Of a DNA stretch of 64,000 nt, positions 22,678 to 43,121 are shown piece after piece. The translations under genes were made by a program, and so were the position numbers. The DNA is from Acidimicrobiaceae bacterium (lineage in GTDB: Bacteria; Actinomycetota; Acidimicrobiia; Acidimicrobiales; Aldehydirespiratoraceae). Within the stretch, counting starts at the first letter, position 1, and each line of letters opens with the position of its first letter. The notes beneath the pieces are model-generated. The model was not told where the DNA came from and did no database searches. It saw only the letters and a list, made by a program, of their open reading frames with translations. The stretch covers positions 2,449 to 66,448 of the forward strand of contig JABIQM010000086.1 of the NCBI GenBank assembly GCA_018699415.1, written 5' to 3'.

Positions 22678-22720
22678 AACGGTGTGACACTAGTGAGTTG
22701 GGCCGCTTGTGCGATTGTGA

Positions 22721-22738
22721 TTGTGAATATGTGCACAA
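22721..22738. promoter_or_regulatory. Rex operator (ROP)-like site TTGTGAAtatgTGCACAA
   Basis: Matches the TTGTGAA-N4-TTCACAA Rex consensus with one mismatch. An extra TTGTGA half-site lies directly upstream (22715-22720). The site is 18 nt upstream of the rex ATG and next to a TANNNT box (TACGTT, 22744-22749). Confidence 0.6.
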
Positions 22739-22755
22739 GCTCGTACGTTGGACGT

Positions 22756-23403
22756 ATGGCTGGATCGGGACACATCCCCGAAGCAACTGTCGCTCGGCTC
22801 CCGCTTTACCTGCGGGCGCTTGGGGAGGTCGCGCCACCCGGGCAGAGCACTGTTTCGTCCGAAGAATTGGCCGATCTTTCTGGTGTGAATGCAGCCAAGG
22901 TCCGCAAGGATCTTTCCTACCTCGGCACGTATGGCACGCGCGGGGTTGGCTACGAGTCCGACTATCTGAAATTTGAAATCAGCCGTGCGCTTGGTCTGTC
23001 CAACACCTGGCCAGTGGTGGTGTGTGGCCTCGGCAACCTTGGCCGCGCTCTCGCTAACCACACCGGGTTCACCGATGCCGGCTTCCCGGTTGCCGCTGCC
23101 GTTGATACGGACCTTGACAAGATCGGCGCCACAATCGATGGCGTACCCGTGTTTGCGCCCGCAGACCTGAGCGAAGTAGTCAACGAGTTCGAGATCGCCA
23201 TCGGAGTCATCGCTACACCGGCGAGCGCCGCGCAGGGAGTCGCCGAGGCACTCGTCGAGGCTGAGGTGAAGTCGATCATGAGTTTCGTCCCAACAGTTCT
23301 GACCGTCCCCGACGACGTCGAATTGCGGGTGGTTGATTTGGCCACCGAGCTTCAGATCCTCGGCTTTCATCTGCACCGCTCGAATGGGGAGGTGGGGACG
23401 TGA
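22756..23403 (+). CDS. rex: redox-sensing transcriptional repressor Rex
   Basis: Track ORF trimmed to the ATG at 22756, downstream of the operator. IPEATVARLPLYLRAL...LSYLGTYGTRGVGY...VVCGLGNLGRALAN (winged helix plus Rossmann GxGxxG) is the classic Rex pattern. Confidence 0.9.
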   Translation: MAGSGHIPEATVARLPLYLRALGEVAPPGQSTVSSEELADLSGVNAAKVRKDLSYLGTYGTRGVGYESDYLKFEISRALGLSNTWPVVVCGLGNLGRALANHTGFTDAGFPVAAAVDTDLDKIGATIDGVPVFAPADLSEVVNEFEIAIGVIATPASAAQGVAEALVEAEVKSIMSFVPTVLTVPDDVELRVVDLATELQILGFHLHRSNGEVGT

Positions 23404-35998: not shown

Positions 35999-36814
35999 TC
36001 AGCCGGCAGCGTGTTCCTCGTCGCCGTCTGCGCCAGCGCGGGCTGTGTCGATGAGGTACTGAAGATCTTCGGCTTGAAGACCGGAGTCAAGGTCAACGCC
36101 CTCTTCCTCCATCACCTGGAGGAGTTCTTCAAGCAGGTGAAGCTCGGCCTCAGCGGCGACATCGTCGAGACCGCCGTGGGTGACTCGCTCGTAGTAGACG
36201 ACGGCGACAAGTTCTTCTGCGGAAAGGCCGCCACCGAACCCGCTCATTTGACCGAAGCTGCCAGGGGTGCGAGCGCCGCCAGAGCGTGCCGGGTCGCCGT
36301 ATGTGGCAGTGCTGGTTCCAGCGGTGCCGTTGGCAACCCATGCGATTTGGCCGGCGATGCCGTCGTAGGCCTCGCCGGCTTCAGCGCTCGGGAAGGTTAA
36401 CAAGACCTGGCCATCGTTGAGTTGACGACCGGTACCGCCGCCTCCAGTGCCACCATGGCAACTGGCGCATTGGCCGCTGTAGATCTCACCACCCTCGACA
36501 AGCAACCCACCTGCATCGGCGGGGGGATTCTCGAGATAGCCCACGTAGTAGATGGCCCACATCGGCAAGAACAACAGCACGGGAATGATCCACGCCGGGA
36601 TTGTCTTGCGCTTCAGGCCGGCCTCGACGTATGGGGCGACGGGCTCGGGGGCCTTCGGCTCCTCGGGGACGGCTGGTGATGCTGCAACAACAGGGGTGGC
36701 AACGGAAGGCGTCGCGGCCGGTGCGGCGTCGCCGCCTCCACCGCCACCTTCGCCAGTAAGGCGAGCGCGGGCTTCGGCCGCTCGTTTCAGCAGATGCTCG
36801 GGAAGTTCGGTCAC
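35999..36814 (-). CDS. membrane-anchored monoheme c-type cytochrome
   Basis: 271 aa with a GTG start. One CxxCH (CASCH), a distal GQMSGFGG Met-ligand region, one TM (IPAWIIPVLLFLPMWAIYYVGY), and the N-terminal motif MTELPEHLLKRAAEARA. Confidence 0.8.
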   Translation of the reverse strand: MTELPEHLLKRAAEARARLTGEGGGGGGDAAPAATPSVATPVVAASPAVPEEPKAPEPVAPYVEAGLKRKTIPAWIIPVLLFLPMWAIYYVGYLENPPADAGGLLVEGGEIYSGQCASCHGGTGGGGTGRQLNDGQVLLTFPSAEAGEAYDGIAGQIAWVANGTAGTSTATYGDPARSGGARTPGSFGQMSGFGGGLSAEELVAVVYYERVTHGGLDDVAAEAELHLLEELLQVMEEEGVDLDSGLQAEDLQYLIDTARAGADGDEEHAAG

Positions 36815-37038: not shown

Positions 37039-37066
37039 TTGTGCGCGGTTTCACGAAGTTCGTGAA
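37039..37066. promoter_or_regulatory. overlapping operator candidates: Rex/CRP-like TTGTGCGcggtTTCACGA and perfect palindrome TTCACGAAgTTCGTGAA
   Basis: The 17-bp perfect palindrome lies at 37050-37066. The TGTGc-N6-TCACg element lies at 37039-37056 and abuts a TANNNT box (TACACT, 37034-37039). Both are 27-54 nt upstream of the first gene of the respiratory gene string. Confidence 0.35.
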
Positions 37067-37092: not shown

Positions 37093-37545
37093 GTGGTTGC
37101 TTTTGTTCTGTCCTGCATCGTTGCCCTCGTGATCACGGGGGGGATCGTCGCGTATTCAAAGCGGTTCCCAGCCGACGCGTCCATGACGTGGGGCCAAGCC
37201 ATGCTGGGTTCATTCATCGTCTTCTTCTTGATGTTCTGGGTCTATGGCGTCGTGCCTCACCAATGGTTGGTGTGGGCTGACAACGAACTCAACTGGCGTG
37301 TTGACAAGTTTTTCGTTGGGCCTGGCGGGATTCTGAAACACTCACGTGACGGCGGCTTCATGCCGCTCGACATCACGTATGTCGTACTCCGTGACCTCAT
37401 CGCCGTGATCATCTATACCGTCGCCTTGGGCGCAAATATTTCCCTGTGGTCAACCTGGCAGAAGCGTGGCCAGGATACCGCTGCTGCTGCGCCTGAGCGT
37501 TCGGCCTTTGGCCGTCCACTCATCAAGGAAGGTTCGTCGTCGTGA
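37093..37545 (+). CDS. small integral membrane protein (unknown function), first gene of the Rieske/cyt b cluster
   Basis: 150 aa with a GTG start and 3-4 hydrophobic helices. 4-nt overlap with the ferredoxin gene. Confidence 0.6.
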   Translation: MVAFVLSCIVALVITGGIVAYSKRFPADASMTWGQAMLGSFIVFFLMFWVYGVVPHQWLVWADNELNWRVDKFFVGPGGILKHSRDGGFMPLDITYVVLRDLIAVIIYTVALGANISLWSTWQKRGQDTAAAAPERSAFGRPLIKEGSSS

Positions 37546-37958
37546 GCAACGTCGATGCAAACCCTCCGATGCCGCTTTTCCGGGATGATTACGTCCTTCA
37601 AGAGGTCGATGGAGCCTGGCTTAGTCAGCAGGTCAAGCCCAAGCAGTTCATTCATATCGACCAGTCCGAGTGCATCATGTGCGAAGGCTGTGTCGACATT
37701 TGCCCTTGGAAGTGCATCCACATGGTGCGCCCGGATGCGATCGACGAAGCGATCGGTACCGAGCAGCCTGGCAGCGACCCCAACGATCATGTGATTTTCA
37801 CGATCGACGATGATGTGTGCACTCGTTGCGCACTTTGCGTTGATCGGTGCCCGACAGGCGTCATAATTCTCGGCAAGATCAGCGATGCGCCCGCTGCCGG
37901 TGACTCTCATCAGCGGACTAATACTCATGGCTACGGATACGGAATGCGCCTCAGCTGA
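37542..37958 (+). CDS. 2x[4Fe-4S] dicluster ferredoxin-domain protein
   Basis: 138 aa. Two CxxCxxCxxxCP motifs (CIMCEGCVDICP and CTRCALCVDRCP). Confidence 0.85.
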   Translation: MSNVDANPPMPLFRDDYVLQEVDGAWLSQQVKPKQFIHIDQSECIMCEGCVDICPWKCIHMVRPDAIDEAIGTEQPGSDPNDHVIFTIDDDVCTRCALCVDRCPTGVIILGKISDAPAAGDSHQRTNTHGYGYGMRLS

Positions 37959-37982
37959 GGCGTAGGAGAAACAAGAACTCAG

Positions 37983-38774
37983 ATGGCTACCGACGAAGAT
38001 GTAAAGAAGCCGTTCCCGCAACGGATGCAGGATTCAATGTCCCAAATGGGGGATCAGATCCAGAGCTCCCAGGCATGGAACTCGATTTTCCGGCCTGGTT
38101 CGATTTTCCGGAAGGGCTACACGGATAGCCCGCGCAACCGGTCCTACGTGATCATGAACAGCGTGTTGTACCACCTTCACCCGGTGAAGGTGAAGCGCCA
38201 CTCGGTGAAGGTCAGCTACACCCTGTGCTTGGGTGGTCTGTCATTTCTCTTGTTCATCCACCTGACGATCACGGGCATCTTCTTGATGTTCTTCTACCGC
38301 CCGACGGCGGCGGCGGCCTGGGATGACATATATACGCTGCAGAACACCGTCACGTTCGGCTTATTGGTTCGCAACATGCACAGGTGGGCGGCTCACCTCA
38401 TGGTGCTGAGTGTGTTCCTGCACATGGCTCGCGTCTTCTACCATGGCGCCTACAAGCCGCCCCGGGAGTTCAACTGGGTTATCGGCGTGATGCTTCTTCA
38501 GTTCACGCTGTTGCTTTCTTTCACCGGCTACCTGCTCCCATGGGATCAGCTGGCGCTCTGGGCTGTGACCGTGGGTACTAACATGATGGGGTATACCCCA
38601 GTGTTCGGTGATCAGGTCCGGTTCGTACTGCTGGGTGGTGTCGAAATCGGCACTGATACTCTGCTTCGTTGGTACGTGCTCCACGTGCTGCTGCTTCCAT
38701 TCGTTGTCGTCATCTTCATGGCGATTCACTTCTGGAGAGTCCGCAAGGACGGCGGCATCTCGGGGCCGTTGTAG
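37983..38774 (+). CDS. cytochrome b6-type (N-terminal four-helix) cytochrome b
   Basis: 263 aa. Helix B His pair HRWAAHLMVLSVFLH (13 residues between the first and last His). Helix D His pair HVLLLPFVVVIFMAIH (14 between, as in b6). YTLCLGG cysteine at the heme ci position. LLPWDQ motif. Confidence 0.9.
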   Translation: MATDEDVKKPFPQRMQDSMSQMGDQIQSSQAWNSIFRPGSIFRKGYTDSPRNRSYVIMNSVLYHLHPVKVKRHSVKVSYTLCLGGLSFLLFIHLTITGIFLMFFYRPTAAAAWDDIYTLQNTVTFGLLVRNMHRWAAHLMVLSVFLHMARVFYHGAYKPPREFNWVIGVMLLQFTLLLSFTGYLLPWDQLALWAVTVGTNMMGYTPVFGDQVRFVLLGGVEIGTDTLLRWYVLHVLLLPFVVVIFMAIHFWRVRKDGGISGPL

Positions 38775-38792
38775 GACCAGGGAGAACAGAAC

Positions 38793-39563
38793 ATGACTGA
38801 AGTTCCCGAACACCTCCGTAAGAAGGCCGCTGAGGCTCGTGCGAAGGCCGATGCTGCAAAGGCTGGACCTGCGTCGTCTACTGAGGAGACAGCGCTTACT
38901 GCCGAGCAGCAGGAAGCAGCATCAAAGATCCCTGCACATTTGCTCGAGCGCTCAAAGGCCGCCGGAGCAAAATCGGGCGGAGGGGAAGCCGGTGGCGTTG
39001 TTGTCACCACTCCCGGTGCTGGCGCCCCTGCGGCGACTGCGGGTGGGCCGGTTCTGACTGGGCCAGGGGGCAACACCCAGCGTTTGCTCACCGTTGTCAA
39101 GTCTGGTTCGATCCAAGACACGAAGTCTTCTCCACAGGACAAGGTTCATACGTGGCCGCACCTTCTTGTGGCCGAGTTCGCAGCAGCTCTCTTCATCACG
39201 GCGTTCATCCTGATCTTCTCGATCTTTGTGAACGCTCCACTGCTTGAGTTGGCCAACTTCAACGAGACGCCAAATCCTTCAAAAGCCCCCTGGTACTTCC
39301 TTGGCCTTCAGGAACTGTTGACCATGTTCCATCCGATGGTTGCTGGCGTGACCATCCCGGGTATCGGCCTCTTTGTGCTGATCCTGGCTCCGTATATCGA
39401 CCGAAATCCCTCGGCCAAGCCTGAGGACCGCAAGTTCGCGATCTCGCTAATGACGATTCACCTGATGTTCTGGGCGATCCTCGTCATGATCGGCTCGTTC
39501 TTCCGAGGTCCAGGCTTCAACTTCGTCTTCCCGTGGGAAGCCGGACTCTTCTTCGAGCTGTGA
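38793..39563 (+). CDS. cytochrome b C-terminal part (subunit IV / PetD-like) with a ~110-aa N-terminal extension
   Basis: 256 aa. APWYFLGLQELL (PEWY-type Qo motif) and three TM helices. The N-terminus is MTEVPEHLRKKAAEARA. Confidence 0.85.
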   Translation: MTEVPEHLRKKAAEARAKADAAKAGPASSTEETALTAEQQEAASKIPAHLLERSKAAGAKSGGGEAGGVVVTTPGAGAPAATAGGPVLTGPGGNTQRLLTVVKSGSIQDTKSSPQDKVHTWPHLLVAEFAAALFITAFILIFSIFVNAPLLELANFNETPNPSKAPWYFLGLQELLTMFHPMVAGVTIPGIGLFVLILAPYIDRNPSAKPEDRKFAISLMTIHLMFWAILVMIGSFFRGPGFNFVFPWEAGLFFEL

Positions 39564-39579
39564 GCAAAGGAGACTGCCA

Positions 39580-40458
39580 ATGATCACCCTCGGAATTATC
39601 GCAATCGTCGTGCTGGCTGGCACCGCCGTTATTGCCATCATGCGCGGTCGTCAGGCCGACGAAGCGGTCGGTATCTTGTCCAGCGAGACCAAGAAGCGCG
39701 ACACTGCTAGTTCGGCGCTCGGTTCAGAAGCGGAGCTTTCCGGCAAGCAGGTTGAGAGGGCTGCGGCGCTTGATCGCAAGGCCTCGTCGCAGCAACTCGT
39801 CCTCGCCGCTGACTCTGCCCCTCCTGCCCCATACGTGCCGCCGGACCCCGAGGTCATCGGTGTCAGCCGACGTCAGTTCTTCAACCGCTCGATCGTTTTG
39901 ATGATGCAGATCGGTCTCGGTGGCTTTGGCGCTGCATGCATTGCCTTCTTGTGGCCCCAGCTTGGTGGCGGCTTCGGCTCGGCCATCAAGATCGGACTTG
40001 TCAGCGACTTGCTCGCCGATATCCGCAGTAACAATGGCTTCCTATACAAGGCTGAAGGCCGTATGTGGTTGACCGAGTACCCAAACGGCGCGGTCGAGAA
40101 GGCTCGAGCCGCGTACTCGGCTCCCGAACTCGCCGGCATGGAGGCAGGTCTCACATTGGGCCTCGATGGTGGCATTCTTGCGCTCTACCAGAAGTGCCCC
40201 CACCTCGGTTGCCGTGTGCCCGAGTGCGGTACCTCTCAATGGTTCGAATGTCCGTGTCATGGCTCGCAGTACAATCGAGTTGGTGAAAAGCGTGGCGGTC
40301 CTGCGCCTCGCGGCATGGACCGTTTCGCGATGAGCATCGGTAGTGACGGTTCACTTACCGTCAACACTGGCGCCATCGTCCAAGGTCCTCCGATCGGCAC
40401 CAACACGACTGGTCAAGAAGCCGAAGGCCCCAACTGCATCGGCCAGTCAAGCCACTAG
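39580..40458 (+). CDS. Rieske [2Fe-2S] iron-sulfur protein
   Basis: 292 aa. CPHLGC ... CPCHGS cluster boxes, an N-terminal TM and a second TM region. Confidence 0.9.
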   Translation: MITLGIIAIVVLAGTAVIAIMRGRQADEAVGILSSETKKRDTASSALGSEAELSGKQVERAAALDRKASSQQLVLAADSAPPAPYVPPDPEVIGVSRRQFFNRSIVLMMQIGLGGFGAACIAFLWPQLGGGFGSAIKIGLVSDLLADIRSNNGFLYKAEGRMWLTEYPNGAVEKARAAYSAPELAGMEAGLTLGLDGGILALYQKCPHLGCRVPECGTSQWFECPCHGSQYNRVGEKRGGPAPRGMDRFAMSIGSDGSLTVNTGAIVQGPPIGTNTTGQEAEGPNCIGQSSH

Positions 40459-40518
40459 TAACCTCCGTCCGTTCCCAAGCTGAGTATTCAGACCAAAGAT
40501 CCAGAGTTCTTCACGCGC

Positions 40519-42003
40519 ATGCTGCTCGCCGCTTCAACACAACGAACCATCGGCCTCGTCATTTTGGCGATCGTCTTTATTGGTGGTCTCGTTTACATCT
40601 ACTTCAACATTCGATCCGCTCGTGATGAGCTCGGTTCCGAAATTGAGTTGGCCGCCAACCGGCGCCAATACATGGACGATGCCGAGCTAGAGACCAAGCG
40701 TCTTGATCTCGCTCTCGGCACCAGCCTCGTGTTGCTGACCATCACGGCGGTCACGCTGCCGCTGTACTGGCTCGGTGAACCCGGTCGCCATGAGGGACGC
40801 GACGTCGACACGTCGCGCATCTTTACCAACCGCGGCGAAGAGATCTATGTCGAAGGCGCCCAGTGCGTCGCCTGCCACGGTTCGGAAGGTTCCGGTGGTG
40901 CTGTTTCCACGGCTATCACTACCGAAGACGGTGGTTTCCTCGCACAGGTGAGCTGGAAAGCCCCCGCCCTGAACACCTTGCTCTCCCGCTTCACCGAGAA
41001 TGAAGTGATTCACACCCTGAACTTTGGCCGCAATGGCGTTATGCCAGCCTGGGGTGGCGGTGGCGGTGGCCCGCTCACCGACCAGCAGCTCGATGAGATC
41101 GTTTACTACATCCGGTCGATCCAGATCGACGAGGATCAGATCAACAGCGAAGTTGACATTGGCATCCGCCAAGGTGTCGAAACCAAACTCCGCGCCGAAA
41201 GCGACGCCGACTGGGCAACTGAGTTGCGTGCAGTGAACGACGCCAAGGACGCCACTGCATGGGACGTCACTTTGGCCAGCCGAGCGACCTTCGGATTCGA
41301 CTGCACCGAACAGACAACTGATAGTCGTTGCGTTGCAGACAACGACGCCTCCCAAGCGCTGCTCGCCGCCGAGACCGTTCATGCGGATGCCCTCGAGTCG
41401 GCGGTCACGTCATGGCTCGCTGATGTGGACGCTGTGCGCCAGAGCGCGTGGGAGGCCGCATTGGCCGCCGACTCGTCGCTCGACAACGAAGGCAACGAGG
41501 ATGCCTGGCGTTTCGCAGCGTTGGAGTTGTTGTCCACCGCTGGAGCGATCGACGGACAAGAGCTGTACTTGGAGTACGGCGAGATCCTCTTCACCAACAC
41601 GGCCGCCGCCGGCACCTACAACTGCGCCCGGTGCCATACCTATGGTTGGAGTTTCGACGCCACGGGGCCCTACAGCCTCGAACTCCAGGGCACCGATGAA
41701 CCCATCCTCGAGAAGTACACGCAGGGCGGTGGCTTCTTTGGCCCCAACCTGCGTGGTGGCACGACGCTCGAACAGTTCGAGTCCGCTGCCAGTCACGTCG
41801 ATTTCATCACCAAGGGTCAAACCATGGGGGCAACATATGGTCGCGGTGGTTCTGGAGGCAACGGTCAGATGCCAGGCTTCGGCCCGAACACTGACTCTTC
41901 CCCCGTCGGCCCGACCATCGCCAGCGGCGACGAGTTCTCGTACCCAGGTTTGCTCACTGACGAGCAAATCGACGCAATCGTTGCATTCGAGAGGAACCTC
42001 TAA
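40519..42003 (+). CDS. membrane-anchored diheme c-type cytochrome with a long inter-domain insertion
   Basis: 494 aa. CVACH and CARCH heme motifs with GVMPAWGG and GQMPGFG Met-ligand regions. Two N-terminal TM helices. Confidence 0.85.
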   Translation: MLLAASTQRTIGLVILAIVFIGGLVYIYFNIRSARDELGSEIELAANRRQYMDDAELETKRLDLALGTSLVLLTITAVTLPLYWLGEPGRHEGRDVDTSRIFTNRGEEIYVEGAQCVACHGSEGSGGAVSTAITTEDGGFLAQVSWKAPALNTLLSRFTENEVIHTLNFGRNGVMPAWGGGGGGPLTDQQLDEIVYYIRSIQIDEDQINSEVDIGIRQGVETKLRAESDADWATELRAVNDAKDATAWDVTLASRATFGFDCTEQTTDSRCVADNDASQALLAAETVHADALESAVTSWLADVDAVRQSAWEAALAADSSLDNEGNEDAWRFAALELLSTAGAIDGQELYLEYGEILFTNTAAAGTYNCARCHTYGWSFDATGPYSLELQGTDEPILEKYTQGGGFFGPNLRGGTTLEQFESAASHVDFITKGQTMGATYGRGGSGGNGQMPGFGPNTDSSPVGPTIASGDEFSYPGLLTDEQIDAIVAFERNL

Positions 42004-43121
42004 TGGAGATGCTCGACATCATCGCCGGTCTCGCCTGGGACCCTGAAATCCGTGGTTTCATGGCTGTTCTCACGGGCATCGTGGTGCTCATGGGGTCGGT
42101 CTGGCTGATTATCAGCACCAATACCGGCCCCCGTCTCGGCACGCTCTTATCGCTCGCTGGCTTCTTCGGCTGGATGGCCATCATGGCCTCAATCTGGTGG
42201 ATTTACGGCATCGGCTACGCCGGTGACAGCCCGGTTTGGGAACAGGTTGAGATCGTTGAGGGAACAGACGATGAGGGCCACCTCACCTTCGCGGCGCTCG
42301 ACGCGACCGACGATCTCGCAACCGAAAATCTAAGCGACGCCCACTCGGTCGTCATCGCAGCCGCTGACCAATTGATCGATGAGTACGGCGATAGCGCACT
42401 CACAATGTCGACGTCGGGCCTCTCGATTGACGATGCTGAGCATCTCGCTGAAGTCCAGATTGCATGGGCCGAATACGGCATCGTCACCGCTGATTCGCTC
42501 ACGCCAGACCAAACCGAAGGGCTATCCGACGACGAGATCGCTGCGCTGGTCGCTTACGAACAAGCCAAGAACGAAGCCACCACGCTCTCGGAGTTGGCTG
42601 CGATCTCACCGGGGCTGATCAACCAAGACAGTAGCGACCTCGGCGGTTGGACCTTGTTGTCCACCGCTCAGTCCGGTGAGGCACAGGCATCGGCAATCGC
42701 GATGCTGCTCCAGTCCGGTGATTTCGACTTCCAGGCGGCAACTGATTTCAAGGTCCTTGAGGCGTTTACTATTGGTGGTAAGCGCGGTCTGCCCGAGAAC
42801 CCGTCCCGCTGGGATCGCATCGAAACCCAGGTTCGCACCGCTCTCACTATCAAGCATCCGACTCGCTATGCCATTGTCCAGGTCCAGCAGGTCACCGAAG
42901 AATCGATCACGAACCTTCCCGGAACCGCTCCAAAGCGCCCGGAGGTTGATCCCAACGCTCCGATCGTGTCAATTGTCATGATCCGCAACCTTGGCAACTT
43001 GCGCCTCGTGCCCGCCATGGTCACGATCGGTTCGCTTATCATCTTCCTTGGCCTCTGCTACATGCTTCACGAGCGCGACAAGCTTGTGCTGGTACGCCGG
43101 GCTGAATTCCAGGCGGGCTAG
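42003..43121 (+). CDS. polytopic membrane protein of unknown function with a large acidic soluble domain
   Basis: 372 aa. Three N-terminal TM helices plus one C-terminal TM helix. The ATG at 42003 overlaps the TAA stop of the cytochrome c gene by 1 nt (TAATG). Its stop lies 3 nt before the nuoA start. Confidence 0.6.
   Translation: MEMLDIIAGLAWDPEIRGFMAVLTGIVVLMGSVWLIISTNTGPRLGTLLSLAGFFGWMAIMASIWWIYGIGYAGDSPVWEQVEIVEGTDDEGHLTFAALDATDDLATENLSDAHSVVIAAADQLIDEYGDSALTMSTSGLSIDDAEHLAEVQIAWAEYGIVTADSLTPDQTEGLSDDEIAALVAYEQAKNEATTLSELAAISPGLINQDSSDLGGWTLLSTAQSGEAQASAIAMLLQSGDFDFQAATDFKVLEAFTIGGKRGLPENPSRWDRIETQVRTALTIKHPTRYAIVQVQQVTEESITNLPGTAPKRPEVDPNAPIVSIVMIRNLGNLRLVPAMVTIGSLIIFLGLCYMLHERDKLVLVRRAEFQAG

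Follow-up and report, generated by a model that had tools for sequence, protein, structure and literature searches.

We analysed a window of 64,000 nt from an Acidimicrobiales bacterium (contig JABIQM010000086.1), the plus strand of which carries, between positions 37093 and 43121, seven close-packed genes for a small membrane protein (memb150), a ferredoxin, a cytochrome b6, a subunit IV, a Rieske protein, a diheme cytochrome c and a second membrane protein (memb372). The locus encodes complex III of this bacterium, a quinol:cytochrome c oxidoreductase, with menaquinol as its quinol on our reading. The seven genes of the module, followed by the features that flank it, are:

37093..37545, plus strand: memb150, a small membrane protein of 150 amino acids (aa) with two to three predicted transmembrane (TM) helices; its stop codon overlaps the ferredoxin start by 4 nt
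37542..37958, plus strand: 2x[4Fe-4S] ferredoxin (clusters predicted), 138 aa, two CxxCxxCxxxCP motifs; Fer4 families at about 1e-10
37983..38774, plus strand: cytochrome b6 of the four-helix type, 263 aa; Pfam Cytochrome_B at 1e-44
38793..39563, plus strand: subunit IV, 256 aa, three TM helices; Pfam Cytochrom_B_C (C-terminal cytochrome b / PetD) at 9e-7
39580..40458, plus strand: Rieske [2Fe-2S] protein, 292 aa; Pfam Rieske at 2e-10
40519..42003, plus strand: membrane-anchored diheme cytochrome c, 494 aa, two N-terminal TM helices, heme motifs CVACH and CARCH; Pfam Cytochrom_C at 1e-11
42003..43121, plus strand: memb372, a membrane protein of 372 aa with two N-terminal TM helices and one C-terminal TM helix
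43125..44197, plus strand: nuoA and nuoB, the start of the complex I operon, taken from translations and given as context only
37039..37056, plus strand: inverted repeat resembling a Rex operator, TTGTGCGCGGTTTCACGA, read from the sequence, 54 nt 5' of the first gene
35999..36814, minus strand: divergent, membrane-anchored monoheme cytochrome c, 271 aa, one TM helix, heme motif CASCH; Pfam Cytochrom_C at 2e-5

After the 4-nt overlap between memb150 and the ferredoxin gene, the junctions are gaps of 24, 18, 16 and 60 nt and, between the cytochrome c gene and memb372, a 1-nt overlap. The original prediction had described six tightly packed genes with junctions ranging from a 4-nt overlap to a 60-nt gap. 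All six open reading frames and the junction range were found in the sequence, but the unit extends past 42003 into a seventh gene, memb372, and then into nuoA, which starts 3 nt after the end of memb372. Given this 3-nt separation, and with no convincing terminator-like site seen at the memb372/nuoA junction, complexes III and I may be co-transcribed in Acidimicrobiales. The rex-hemACD, hemB and hemL genes that had been reported from the same window are all present. The ferredoxin, b6 and subunit IV genes lie in one common reading frame (37542-39563), separated by single stop codons and linkers of five to eight codons. A cytochrome P450 gene (34683-35933) adjoins the divergent cytochrome c gene, about 1.6 kb 5' of the ferredoxin gene.

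Conservation of the seven-gene module

Two sets of loci were compared with the window. For Acidimicrobiales, one genome per species was scanned, and the best 80 of at least 588 matching stretches were kept; the distant set comprised 93 loci, 80 from a metagenome scan with a profile of distant ferredoxins and 13 from look-ups. All 80 Acidimicrobiales loci keep the gene order of the window, which runs from the oppositely oriented monoheme cytochrome c gene through memb150, ferredoxin, b6, subunit IV, Rieske, cytochrome c and memb372 to nuoA and nuoB, and genes missing from these loci are mostly missing where the contig ends. The memb150 gene lies directly 5' of the ferredoxin gene in 79 of the 80, memb372 is present wherever a locus extends to its position, and the divergent monoheme cytochrome c gene occupies the same position in 65 of the 80, some of the others being cut by contig ends. 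This cytochrome is a candidate for shuttling electrons between the complex and an oxidase.

The same arrangement extends beyond the order. Wherever the distant loci contained enough sequence (77/77), the b6 gene lies directly 3' of the ferredoxin gene, and a homologous small membrane gene precedes the ferredoxin gene in 79 of 83. The b6, subunit IV, Rieske, cytochrome c and memb372 genes are all present in each of the 35 distant loci with enough downstream sequence. Four loci were found by searching with b6 instead of the ferredoxin, one of them (L175) in a metagenome-assembled genome (MAG) labelled Acidobacteria, and all four carry the ferredoxin and the small membrane gene. The order is kept in more than 170 independent loci, and a chance origin is therefore excluded. 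The objection that the ferredoxin and memb150 might not be co-conserved with the b6 and Rieske genes in relatives fails, because they are co-conserved in the 80 species loci, the 93 distant loci and the four loci seeded with b6. The original prediction had also called the gene order non-actinobacterial, which is wrong, as all Acidimicrobiales loci fetched have it and it was also found in other Actinomycetota MAGs. Close relatives of the ferredoxin (80–90% identical) number more than 2,100, all named ones coming from Acidimicrobiales or Acidimicrobiia MAGs, and the named relatives of the distant members are from MAGs labelled 'Actinomycetota bacterium'.

Sequence identity to the window is distributed unevenly over the subunits. 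Across the 80 Acidimicrobiales loci, it is 80–90% for the ferredoxin, 81–93% for b6 where full length, 52–82% for the Rieske protein, 38–69% for the cytochrome c and 34–70% for memb150. The N- and C-terminal tails of the ferredoxin, outside the cluster core, are nearly invariant within Acidimicrobiales. With an identity range like that of b6 and above that of the Rieske protein, the ferredoxin, tails included, is under a constraint similar in strength to that on the catalytic core.

The surroundings of the module vary (nuo genes, or ccs, cta and hem genes), while its content is constant. The nuoA and nuoB genes follow the module in 60 of the 80 Acidimicrobiales loci, some of the others ending earlier, and nuo genes follow it in only 12 of 35 distant loci. 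An obligatory tie to complex I was therefore rejected. In annotated contexts, distant modules without nuo genes adjoin genes for cytochrome c maturation, cbb3- or caa3-type oxidases and heme A synthesis, as well as rex and hem genes. In two loci (L086, 2690-4740, and L087, 1056-2953), the taxonomy of which is taken from the labels of related MAG proteins only, the module stands beside a cbb3-like oxidase represented by COX1 and FixO. One of the two also carries Ccm (system I) cytochrome c maturation genes, which were unexpected in Actinomycetota.

Seven candidate fusions of the ferredoxin with b6 or with the small membrane protein (P0132, P0143, P0155, P0205, P0215, P0228 and P0438) were rejected because all include stretches in the wrong frame, and the one contig inspected is indel-rich. 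Apparent fusions among the ferredoxin, b6 and subunit IV are numerous in public protein sets; the ones inspected result from frameshifted read-through in assemblies prone to error.

Upstream of the module, the pattern TTGTG-N8-CAC[AG]A occurs in 38 of the 80 orthologous regions. Its half-sites are conserved while the spacer varies, and most of the examples listed lie at -51 to -66. We take the window's TTGTGCGCGGTTTCACGA to resemble the Streptomyces Rex operator consensus. The rex gene itself lies in the window (22684-23403) and also adjoins the module in several distant loci. The putative Rex site suggests NADH/NAD+-responsive control of a joint complex III–complex I transcription unit.

Cofactor motifs and the ferredoxin family

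The b6 protein aligns to the solved cyanobacterial and chloroplast b6 proteins with 165 bits and a constant offset of 47. H133, H147, H234 and H249 correspond to the b6 heme ligands H86, H100, H187 and H202, and their spacings of 14 and 15 residues are of the b6 type. C82, within a CLGG motif, is aligned with b6 Cys35, the heme-cN cysteine, and CxGG is found in 65 of 65 orthologs; a covalently bound heme cN is predicted at C82. On the cytoplasmic side, the N-terminus of the protein is extended by a conserved stretch of about 56 residues (W32-Y46, LYHLHP), in which LYHLHP is invariant and lies 16–18 residues ahead of the heme-cN cysteine; the C-terminus carries FWRxRKDGG, likewise invariant. 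The extension falls outside the ranges of the ExtP and PRK03735 (classical b6) models, as the extension of subunit IV is absent from the ExtQ range.

Subunit IV carries the motif APWY at the quinol oxidation (Qo) site, at residue 165 (69/69 orthologs), and an invariant WPHLL..EF (PHL...EF in 69/69). The glutamate of the latter motif lies, judged by eye, near the position of the ligand of the low-potential heme cN, which is thought to be a glutamate (PMC12954380), and is a candidate for the same role here. The cytoplasmic N-terminal extension of subunit IV is about 120 residues long and contains two PEHL-type motifs. Its first residues, MTEVPEHLRKKAAEARAK (38793-38850, plus strand), recur at the cytoplasmic N-terminus of the monoheme cytochrome c as MTELPEHLLKRAAEARAR (36760-36814, minus strand), although the two proteins are otherwise unrelated. 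In both proteins a low-complexity linker comes next, and the motif recurs once more in subunit IV as IPAHLLERS. The peptide is present in 65 of 68 subunit IV orthologs and, as MTE[IV]PEHLLKR, in 46 of 63 orthologs of the monoheme cytochrome; in the six-frame translation of the window, these two proteins gave the sole matches. It might be a docking or targeting peptide.

Among NCBIfam models, b6 passes the ExtP cut-off (302.9 against 290) and stays below that of PRK03735 (210 bits against 325), and subunit IV stays below that of ExtQ (51 bits against 150). With APWY at the Qo site in 69 of 69 orthologs, a split cytochrome b and CxGG, the complex is assigned to the APWY clade (Kao & Hunte 2014), which we equate with subfamily G (Dibrova et al.); the assignment uses motifs and the ExtP-model score, not a tree.

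The Rieske protein has an extra N-terminal TM helix and a sequence resembling a twin-arginine translocation (Tat) motif (SRRQFF) that is followed by a TM helix. Its cluster boxes are CPHLGC at 206 and CPCHGSQY at 224, and CxCHGSxY is kept in 65 of 66 orthologs. Under a published rule, the S-Y signature after CxCH indicates a Rieske potential above 260 mV (PMC4122944), and a high potential is predicted here on that basis. The best matches in the PDB are the Kuenenia Rieske proteins 9rk4 and 9rk3, for which +303 and +335 mV were measured.

As its c-type subunit, the complex has a diheme cytochrome c of class I and not cytochrome f. The two CxxCH motifs of this cytochrome are kept in 61 of 63 orthologs, while the long insert between the heme domains is poorly conserved. 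In some modules from outside Acidimicrobiales, such as L090 (12810-13553) and L092 (12769-13464), the cytochrome c subunit has one heme motif, and it has two in Acidimicrobiales and in L086 and L087. As no small-subunit reading frames of the PetG/L/M/N kind were identified among the module genes either, the complex is b6f-like and not a b6f complex.

No Pfam, NCBIfam or PDB match was found for either membrane protein, memb150 or memb372. The first has a tryptophan-rich motif, TW..A...F..YGVVPH.W..WA...L.W, that is recognisable in distant orthologs, and we propose that it is a membrane anchor or an accessory subunit.

The ferredoxin has Fer4_7, Fer4_9, Fer4_10 and Fer4_21 matches above the gathering cut-offs, with cluster motifs at C44-P55 and C93-P104, and is predicted to be of the bacterial 2x[4Fe-4S] type. 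It has no TM helix, signal peptide or twin-arginine motif and should therefore be cytoplasmic. An insertion of about 20 residues separates the cluster motifs, and there is a ninth cysteine (CPWxC). Both deep branches of the family keep the ninth cysteine and the eight of the clusters without exception, at an overall identity of only 31–43%, and the insertion is conserved in them as well.

This family is narrow. An exhaustive HMMER search of 1.84 billion representative proteins gave 159 representatives below 1e-10, many of them fragments. Full-length members only 35–47% identical belong to the same module, and all contexts examined for the family are b6/Rieske modules. Beyond the family, the hits of this search included polyferredoxin-like proteins with multiple repeats and two proteins resembling GltD, one of which, P0267, is a fragment. 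The other, P0258, is a GltD-like NAD(P) oxidoreductase with Fer4_20 and Pyr_redox_2 domains and a C-terminal dicluster domain, which is 45% identical to the ferredoxin over 78 aa, insertion and extra cysteine included. Of the outgroup hits examined, this domain is, judged by sequence, the nearest to the ferredoxin as a single-domain relative. The P0258 gene and the start of a Rieske gene overlap, and the contig breaks off after that in the first part of a b6 gene, the product of which has the N-terminal motif ...NVFLHL, like NSVLYHLHP in the window. This arrangement matches the one described for the anammox complexes discussed below. A seeming resemblance of the ferredoxin's N-terminal tail to the N-terminus of P0258, which would have pointed to an origin by deletion of the flavoprotein core, was rejected as not significant, the profile score being reached by 573 of 2000 shuffled sequences.

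Comparison with known Rieske/cytochrome b complexes

The core family, the split cytochrome b of Acidimicrobiia and the proposal of cytoplasmic iron-sulphur (FeS) subunits in anammox b6-type complexes are known already. The split cytochrome b of Ilumatobacter (Acidimicrobiia) was listed in 2014 with no mention of a ferredoxin, and no APWY complex had been characterised at that time (PMC4122944). What appears undescribed is the conserved seven-gene module, with a stand-alone dicluster ferredoxin and two membrane proteins without a family, in a widespread and apparently aerobic actinobacterial lineage. No description of the architecture and no solved structure of such a complex was found in the literature searched, and the objection that the architecture might already be characterised in the source lineage finds no support there; the ferredoxin gene may still be depicted in the operon figures of two reviews from 2013.

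The closest parallel is found in the anammox bacterium Kuenenia. For the complexes Kuste4569-4574 and Kustd1480-1485, a cytoplasmic NAD(P) oxidoreductase has been proposed by Kartal et al. as the acceptor of the low-potential electron from bifurcation at the Qo site (PMC12954380). AlphaFold3 models place this oxidoreductase on the negative (n) side, with an FeS chain leading from the b6 dimer to FAD, and predict an inter-monomer heme b on the dimer axis that is liganded by a histidine near the N-terminus of b6, with a C-terminal Arg or Arg-Lys of b6 nearby (PMC12954380). Arg511/Arg550 of the oxidoreductase, which lie beside this predicted extra heme b (PMC12954380), belong on our reading to its C-terminal region. 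The module resembles these complexes in its four-helix b6-like cytochrome b, its separate subunit IV, its heme-cN motif and a Rieske protein with high-potential features, and its b6 has the invariant LYHLHP and FWRxRKDGG motifs in regions comparable to those around the predicted inter-monomer heme b. A cytoplasmic FeS protein is likewise encoded together with the Rieske and b6 proteins, the ferredoxin gene being directly 5' of b6 in every locus examined. In contrast to the anammox complexes, the module has no flavin/NAD(P) part, only the dicluster domain as a separate protein of 138 aa. It has mono- and diheme cytochromes c in place of hexa- and octaheme cytochromes and a hydroxylamine oxidoreductase (HAO)-like protein, three TM helices in subunit IV instead of five, and two extra membrane proteins without a family. 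The module also looks like a housekeeping complex III, whereas the anammox bacteria have several specialised complexes.

With the b6f complex, the module shares the split into b6 and subunit IV, with the heme histidines and the heme-cN cysteine in register. It differs in lacking cytochrome f and PetG/L/M/N and in having APWY instead of PEWY. The quinol of the module is probably menaquinol, judging from the quinones of Acidimicrobiia, and that of b6f is plastoquinol. Ferredoxin has long been proposed as a donor to heme cN on the stromal side in cyclic electron flow, and whether it acts in this way is still disputed (10.1101/2020.08.22.262592; PMC5600118). In that case the ferredoxin is a transient soluble partner, whereas the one described here is encoded in the operon and presumably permanently bound.

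Among Gram-positive bacteria, the Bacillus QcrABC and heliobacterial PetCBDA complexes are likewise of the b6 type, with heme cN, a c-type cytochrome (diheme in heliobacteria) and a respiratory or menaquinol context. In their operons, the Rieske gene comes first, followed by b6 and subunit IV, and neither a ferredoxin nor extra membrane proteins are known from them. Their Qo motif is PDWY or PEWY (PMC4122944). The actinobacterial QcrCAB complex shares with the module its phylum, a role in passing electrons from menaquinol through cytochrome c to an aa3 oxidase, and a diheme cytochrome c. However, its QcrB is an unsplit protein of about 540 aa, its gene order is different, and it lacks both the heme-cN motif and a ferredoxin. 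The module proteins score far below the NCBIfam cut-offs for QcrB_actin (113.9 bits against 500) and QcrA_actin (21.2 against 275), and independent evolutionary origins have been described for the split APWY-type and actinobacterial Qcr complexes (PMC4122944).

The remaining comparison is with ExtOPQ (Cbc6) from the selenite/tellurite cluster extHIJKLMNOPQS of Geobacter, which we assign to the same APWY clade and the ExtP equivalog cut-off of which is passed by b6. The module has no porin, no rhodanese and none of the cytochromes with 5 to 12 hemes of the Ext cluster (PMC5877670), and conversely the 56-residue extension is missing from the ExtP model and a ferredoxin from the Ext cluster. ExtM, considered as a counterpart of the ferredoxin, is a 12-heme cytochrome, and the equation was wrong. 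PGAP names relatives of b6 (P0406, P0427 and P0498) 'selenite/tellurite reduction operon b-type cytochrome ExtP', a name that follows from the equivalog cut-off being just passed. As the Geobacter Ext context is absent, the label is probably a systematic over-annotation in Actinomycetota genomes, and in practice it is misleading for this b6 family.

Proposed role of the ferredoxin

Quinol oxidation at the Qo site sends one electron through the Rieske protein to cytochrome c and on to an oxidase, while the second electron crosses the membrane from heme bP to hemes bN and cN. Menaquinone is the quinone reported for cultured Acidimicrobiia. From family knowledge and the gene neighbourhoods, the core of the complex would work as a Q-cycle reductase and feed aa3/caa3- or cbb3-type oxidases. 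The module looks like the housekeeping complex III of apparently aerobic hosts, given that the annotated contexts carry genes for such oxidases or abut the complex I operon.

The gene content of the locus, its cofactor motifs, the strict co-conservation of its genes and the homology of its FeS module are the observations on which our view of the ferredoxin is based. From them we infer its binding and its redox contact, while the direction of electron flow and the partner are matters of conjecture. We consider it rather likely that the ferredoxin is a bound subunit in redox contact with the n-side hemes and serves as an electron port to the cytoplasm. The N-terminal extensions of b6 and subunit IV, together with memb150, would hold it against the cytoplasmic side of the b6 dimer, where it would add a two-cluster port between the n-side hemes and the cytoplasm. 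As such, it may correspond, as a stand-alone protein without the flavoprotein, to the C-terminal FeS domain found in NAD(P) oxidoreductases of the anammox type. Electrons could take either direction. The clusters might carry low-potential electrons out of the complex as a product of bifurcation at the Qo site, or electrons from a cytoplasmic donor might enter heme cN and menaquinone through the clusters. The combination of a high-potential Rieske protein with menaquinol would provide a large driving force at the Qo site, and the same argument has been made for a very low-potential branch in anammox bacteria (PMC12954380). The further step, a housekeeping complex III, in Acidimicrobiia and other Actinomycetota that branch early, with a permanently bound ferredoxin that exchanges electrons with cN/bN, either as bifurcation-driven production of reductant in an aerobe or as a ferredoxin:menaquinone reductase, is put forward tentatively, and we would not bet on it. 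An extra low-potential FeS subunit or branch had been suggested in the original prediction; this idea is supported and is strengthened by the P0258 homology, physical association with the complex being the part that we infer.

Several points weigh against a cytoplasmic port. No FAD/NAD(P) domain (Pyr_redox, Fer4_20) was found in the seven module proteins with Pfam or in the annotated distant modules, and with no flavin/NAD(P) domain or obvious cytoplasmic partner in the module, the port is left without an identified destination. No genuine fusion of the ferredoxin with b6 or memb150 was found, the apparent ones being frameshift artefacts. Single-chain AlphaFold2 models from shallow alignments were too poor to interpret (predicted local distance difference test, pLDDT, of 42 for the ferredoxin and 59 for b6). 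The LYHLHP and FWRxRKDGG motifs of b6 lie in regions comparable to the anammox His43/His62 and arginine sites, in a comparison made without an alignment, which makes this a lead and not a result. The anammox mechanism is itself a model-based proposal. Finally, membership in the operon is equally compatible with an assembly factor.

Such a function, with the ferredoxin and memb150 as assembly or maturation factors that would, for example, keep heme and cysteine reduced while heme cN is attached through its single thioether bond at the cytoplasmic side, or insert an extra heme, and would not be stoichiometric subunits, seems unlikely to us. Maturation of heme cN in chloroplasts and cyanobacteria needs the dedicated CCB pathway, the CxGG heme-cN motif is present in b6, the conserved motif of memb150, rich in tryptophan and histidine, is reminiscent of heme-handling proteins, and several modules outside Acidimicrobiales adjoin cytochrome c maturation genes. 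However, assembly factors rarely match the conservation of catalytic subunits, as the ferredoxin does with an identity equal to that of b6, and among the outgroup hits examined it is most closely related to a redox domain of an oxidoreductase subunit and not to a chaperone. The Geobacter Ext cluster, moreover, has a b6 of the ExtP family without a ferredoxin gene (PMC5877670).

It also seems improbable that the ferredoxin is bound and silent in turnover, as a vestige of an oxidoreductase subunit, a structural cap or a redox or oxygen sensor, in a complex that runs an ordinary Q cycle. A vestige would fit the relationship to a larger NAD(P) oxidoreductase, whose C-terminal domain the ferredoxin matches and whose flavoprotein part it lacks, the lack of a partner encoded in the module, and the position of all annotated contexts beside aerobic respiratory genes, where a plain complex III would suffice. 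Against it stand the eight cluster cysteines and the ninth, whose invariance at 31–43% identity argues for functional clusters, electron transfer and sensing not being distinguished by this argument.

It is very improbable that the ferredoxin serves the neighbouring P450, biosynthetic FeS enzymes or other unrelated enzymes as an ordinary soluble carrier and is co-transcribed for co-regulation only: small ferredoxins are common P450 partners in actinobacteria and a P450 gene does lie nearby, but it is not beside the module in the annotated distant contexts, which makes it an unlikely partner, whereas the adjacency of ferredoxin and b6 is kept in 77 of 77, all family members with an examined context sit in the module, and long conserved tails outside the core are atypical of a free carrier.

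A bound ferredoxin serving as a cytoplasmic electron port would bear on two questions. The first is whether a Rieske/cytochrome b complex can pass its low-potential electron to a cytoplasmic FeS chain besides, or instead of, the quinone at the quinone reduction (Qn) site, which has so far been proposed for uncharacterised anammox complexes (AlphaFold3; PMC12954380). The second is whether ferredoxin-type clusters exchange electrons with heme cN, as in the disputed ferredoxin-quinone reductase (FQR) route of cyclic electron flow (PMC5600118). Both could be tested in culturable aerobic bacteria, with the module as a minimal version that has two clusters and no flavoprotein. Acidimicrobiales are common in oceans, lakes, soils and activated sludge, and if their respiratory chain differs from the textbook actinobacterial bcc-aa3 chain, genome-based metabolic models of the order would be affected. 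If true, the tentative reading, with bifurcation-driven production of reductant or ferredoxin:menaquinone reduction, would mean a new mode of respiratory coupling in abundant and partly culturable bacteria, and it would provide a natural precedent for the disputed route from ferredoxin to the b6f complex.

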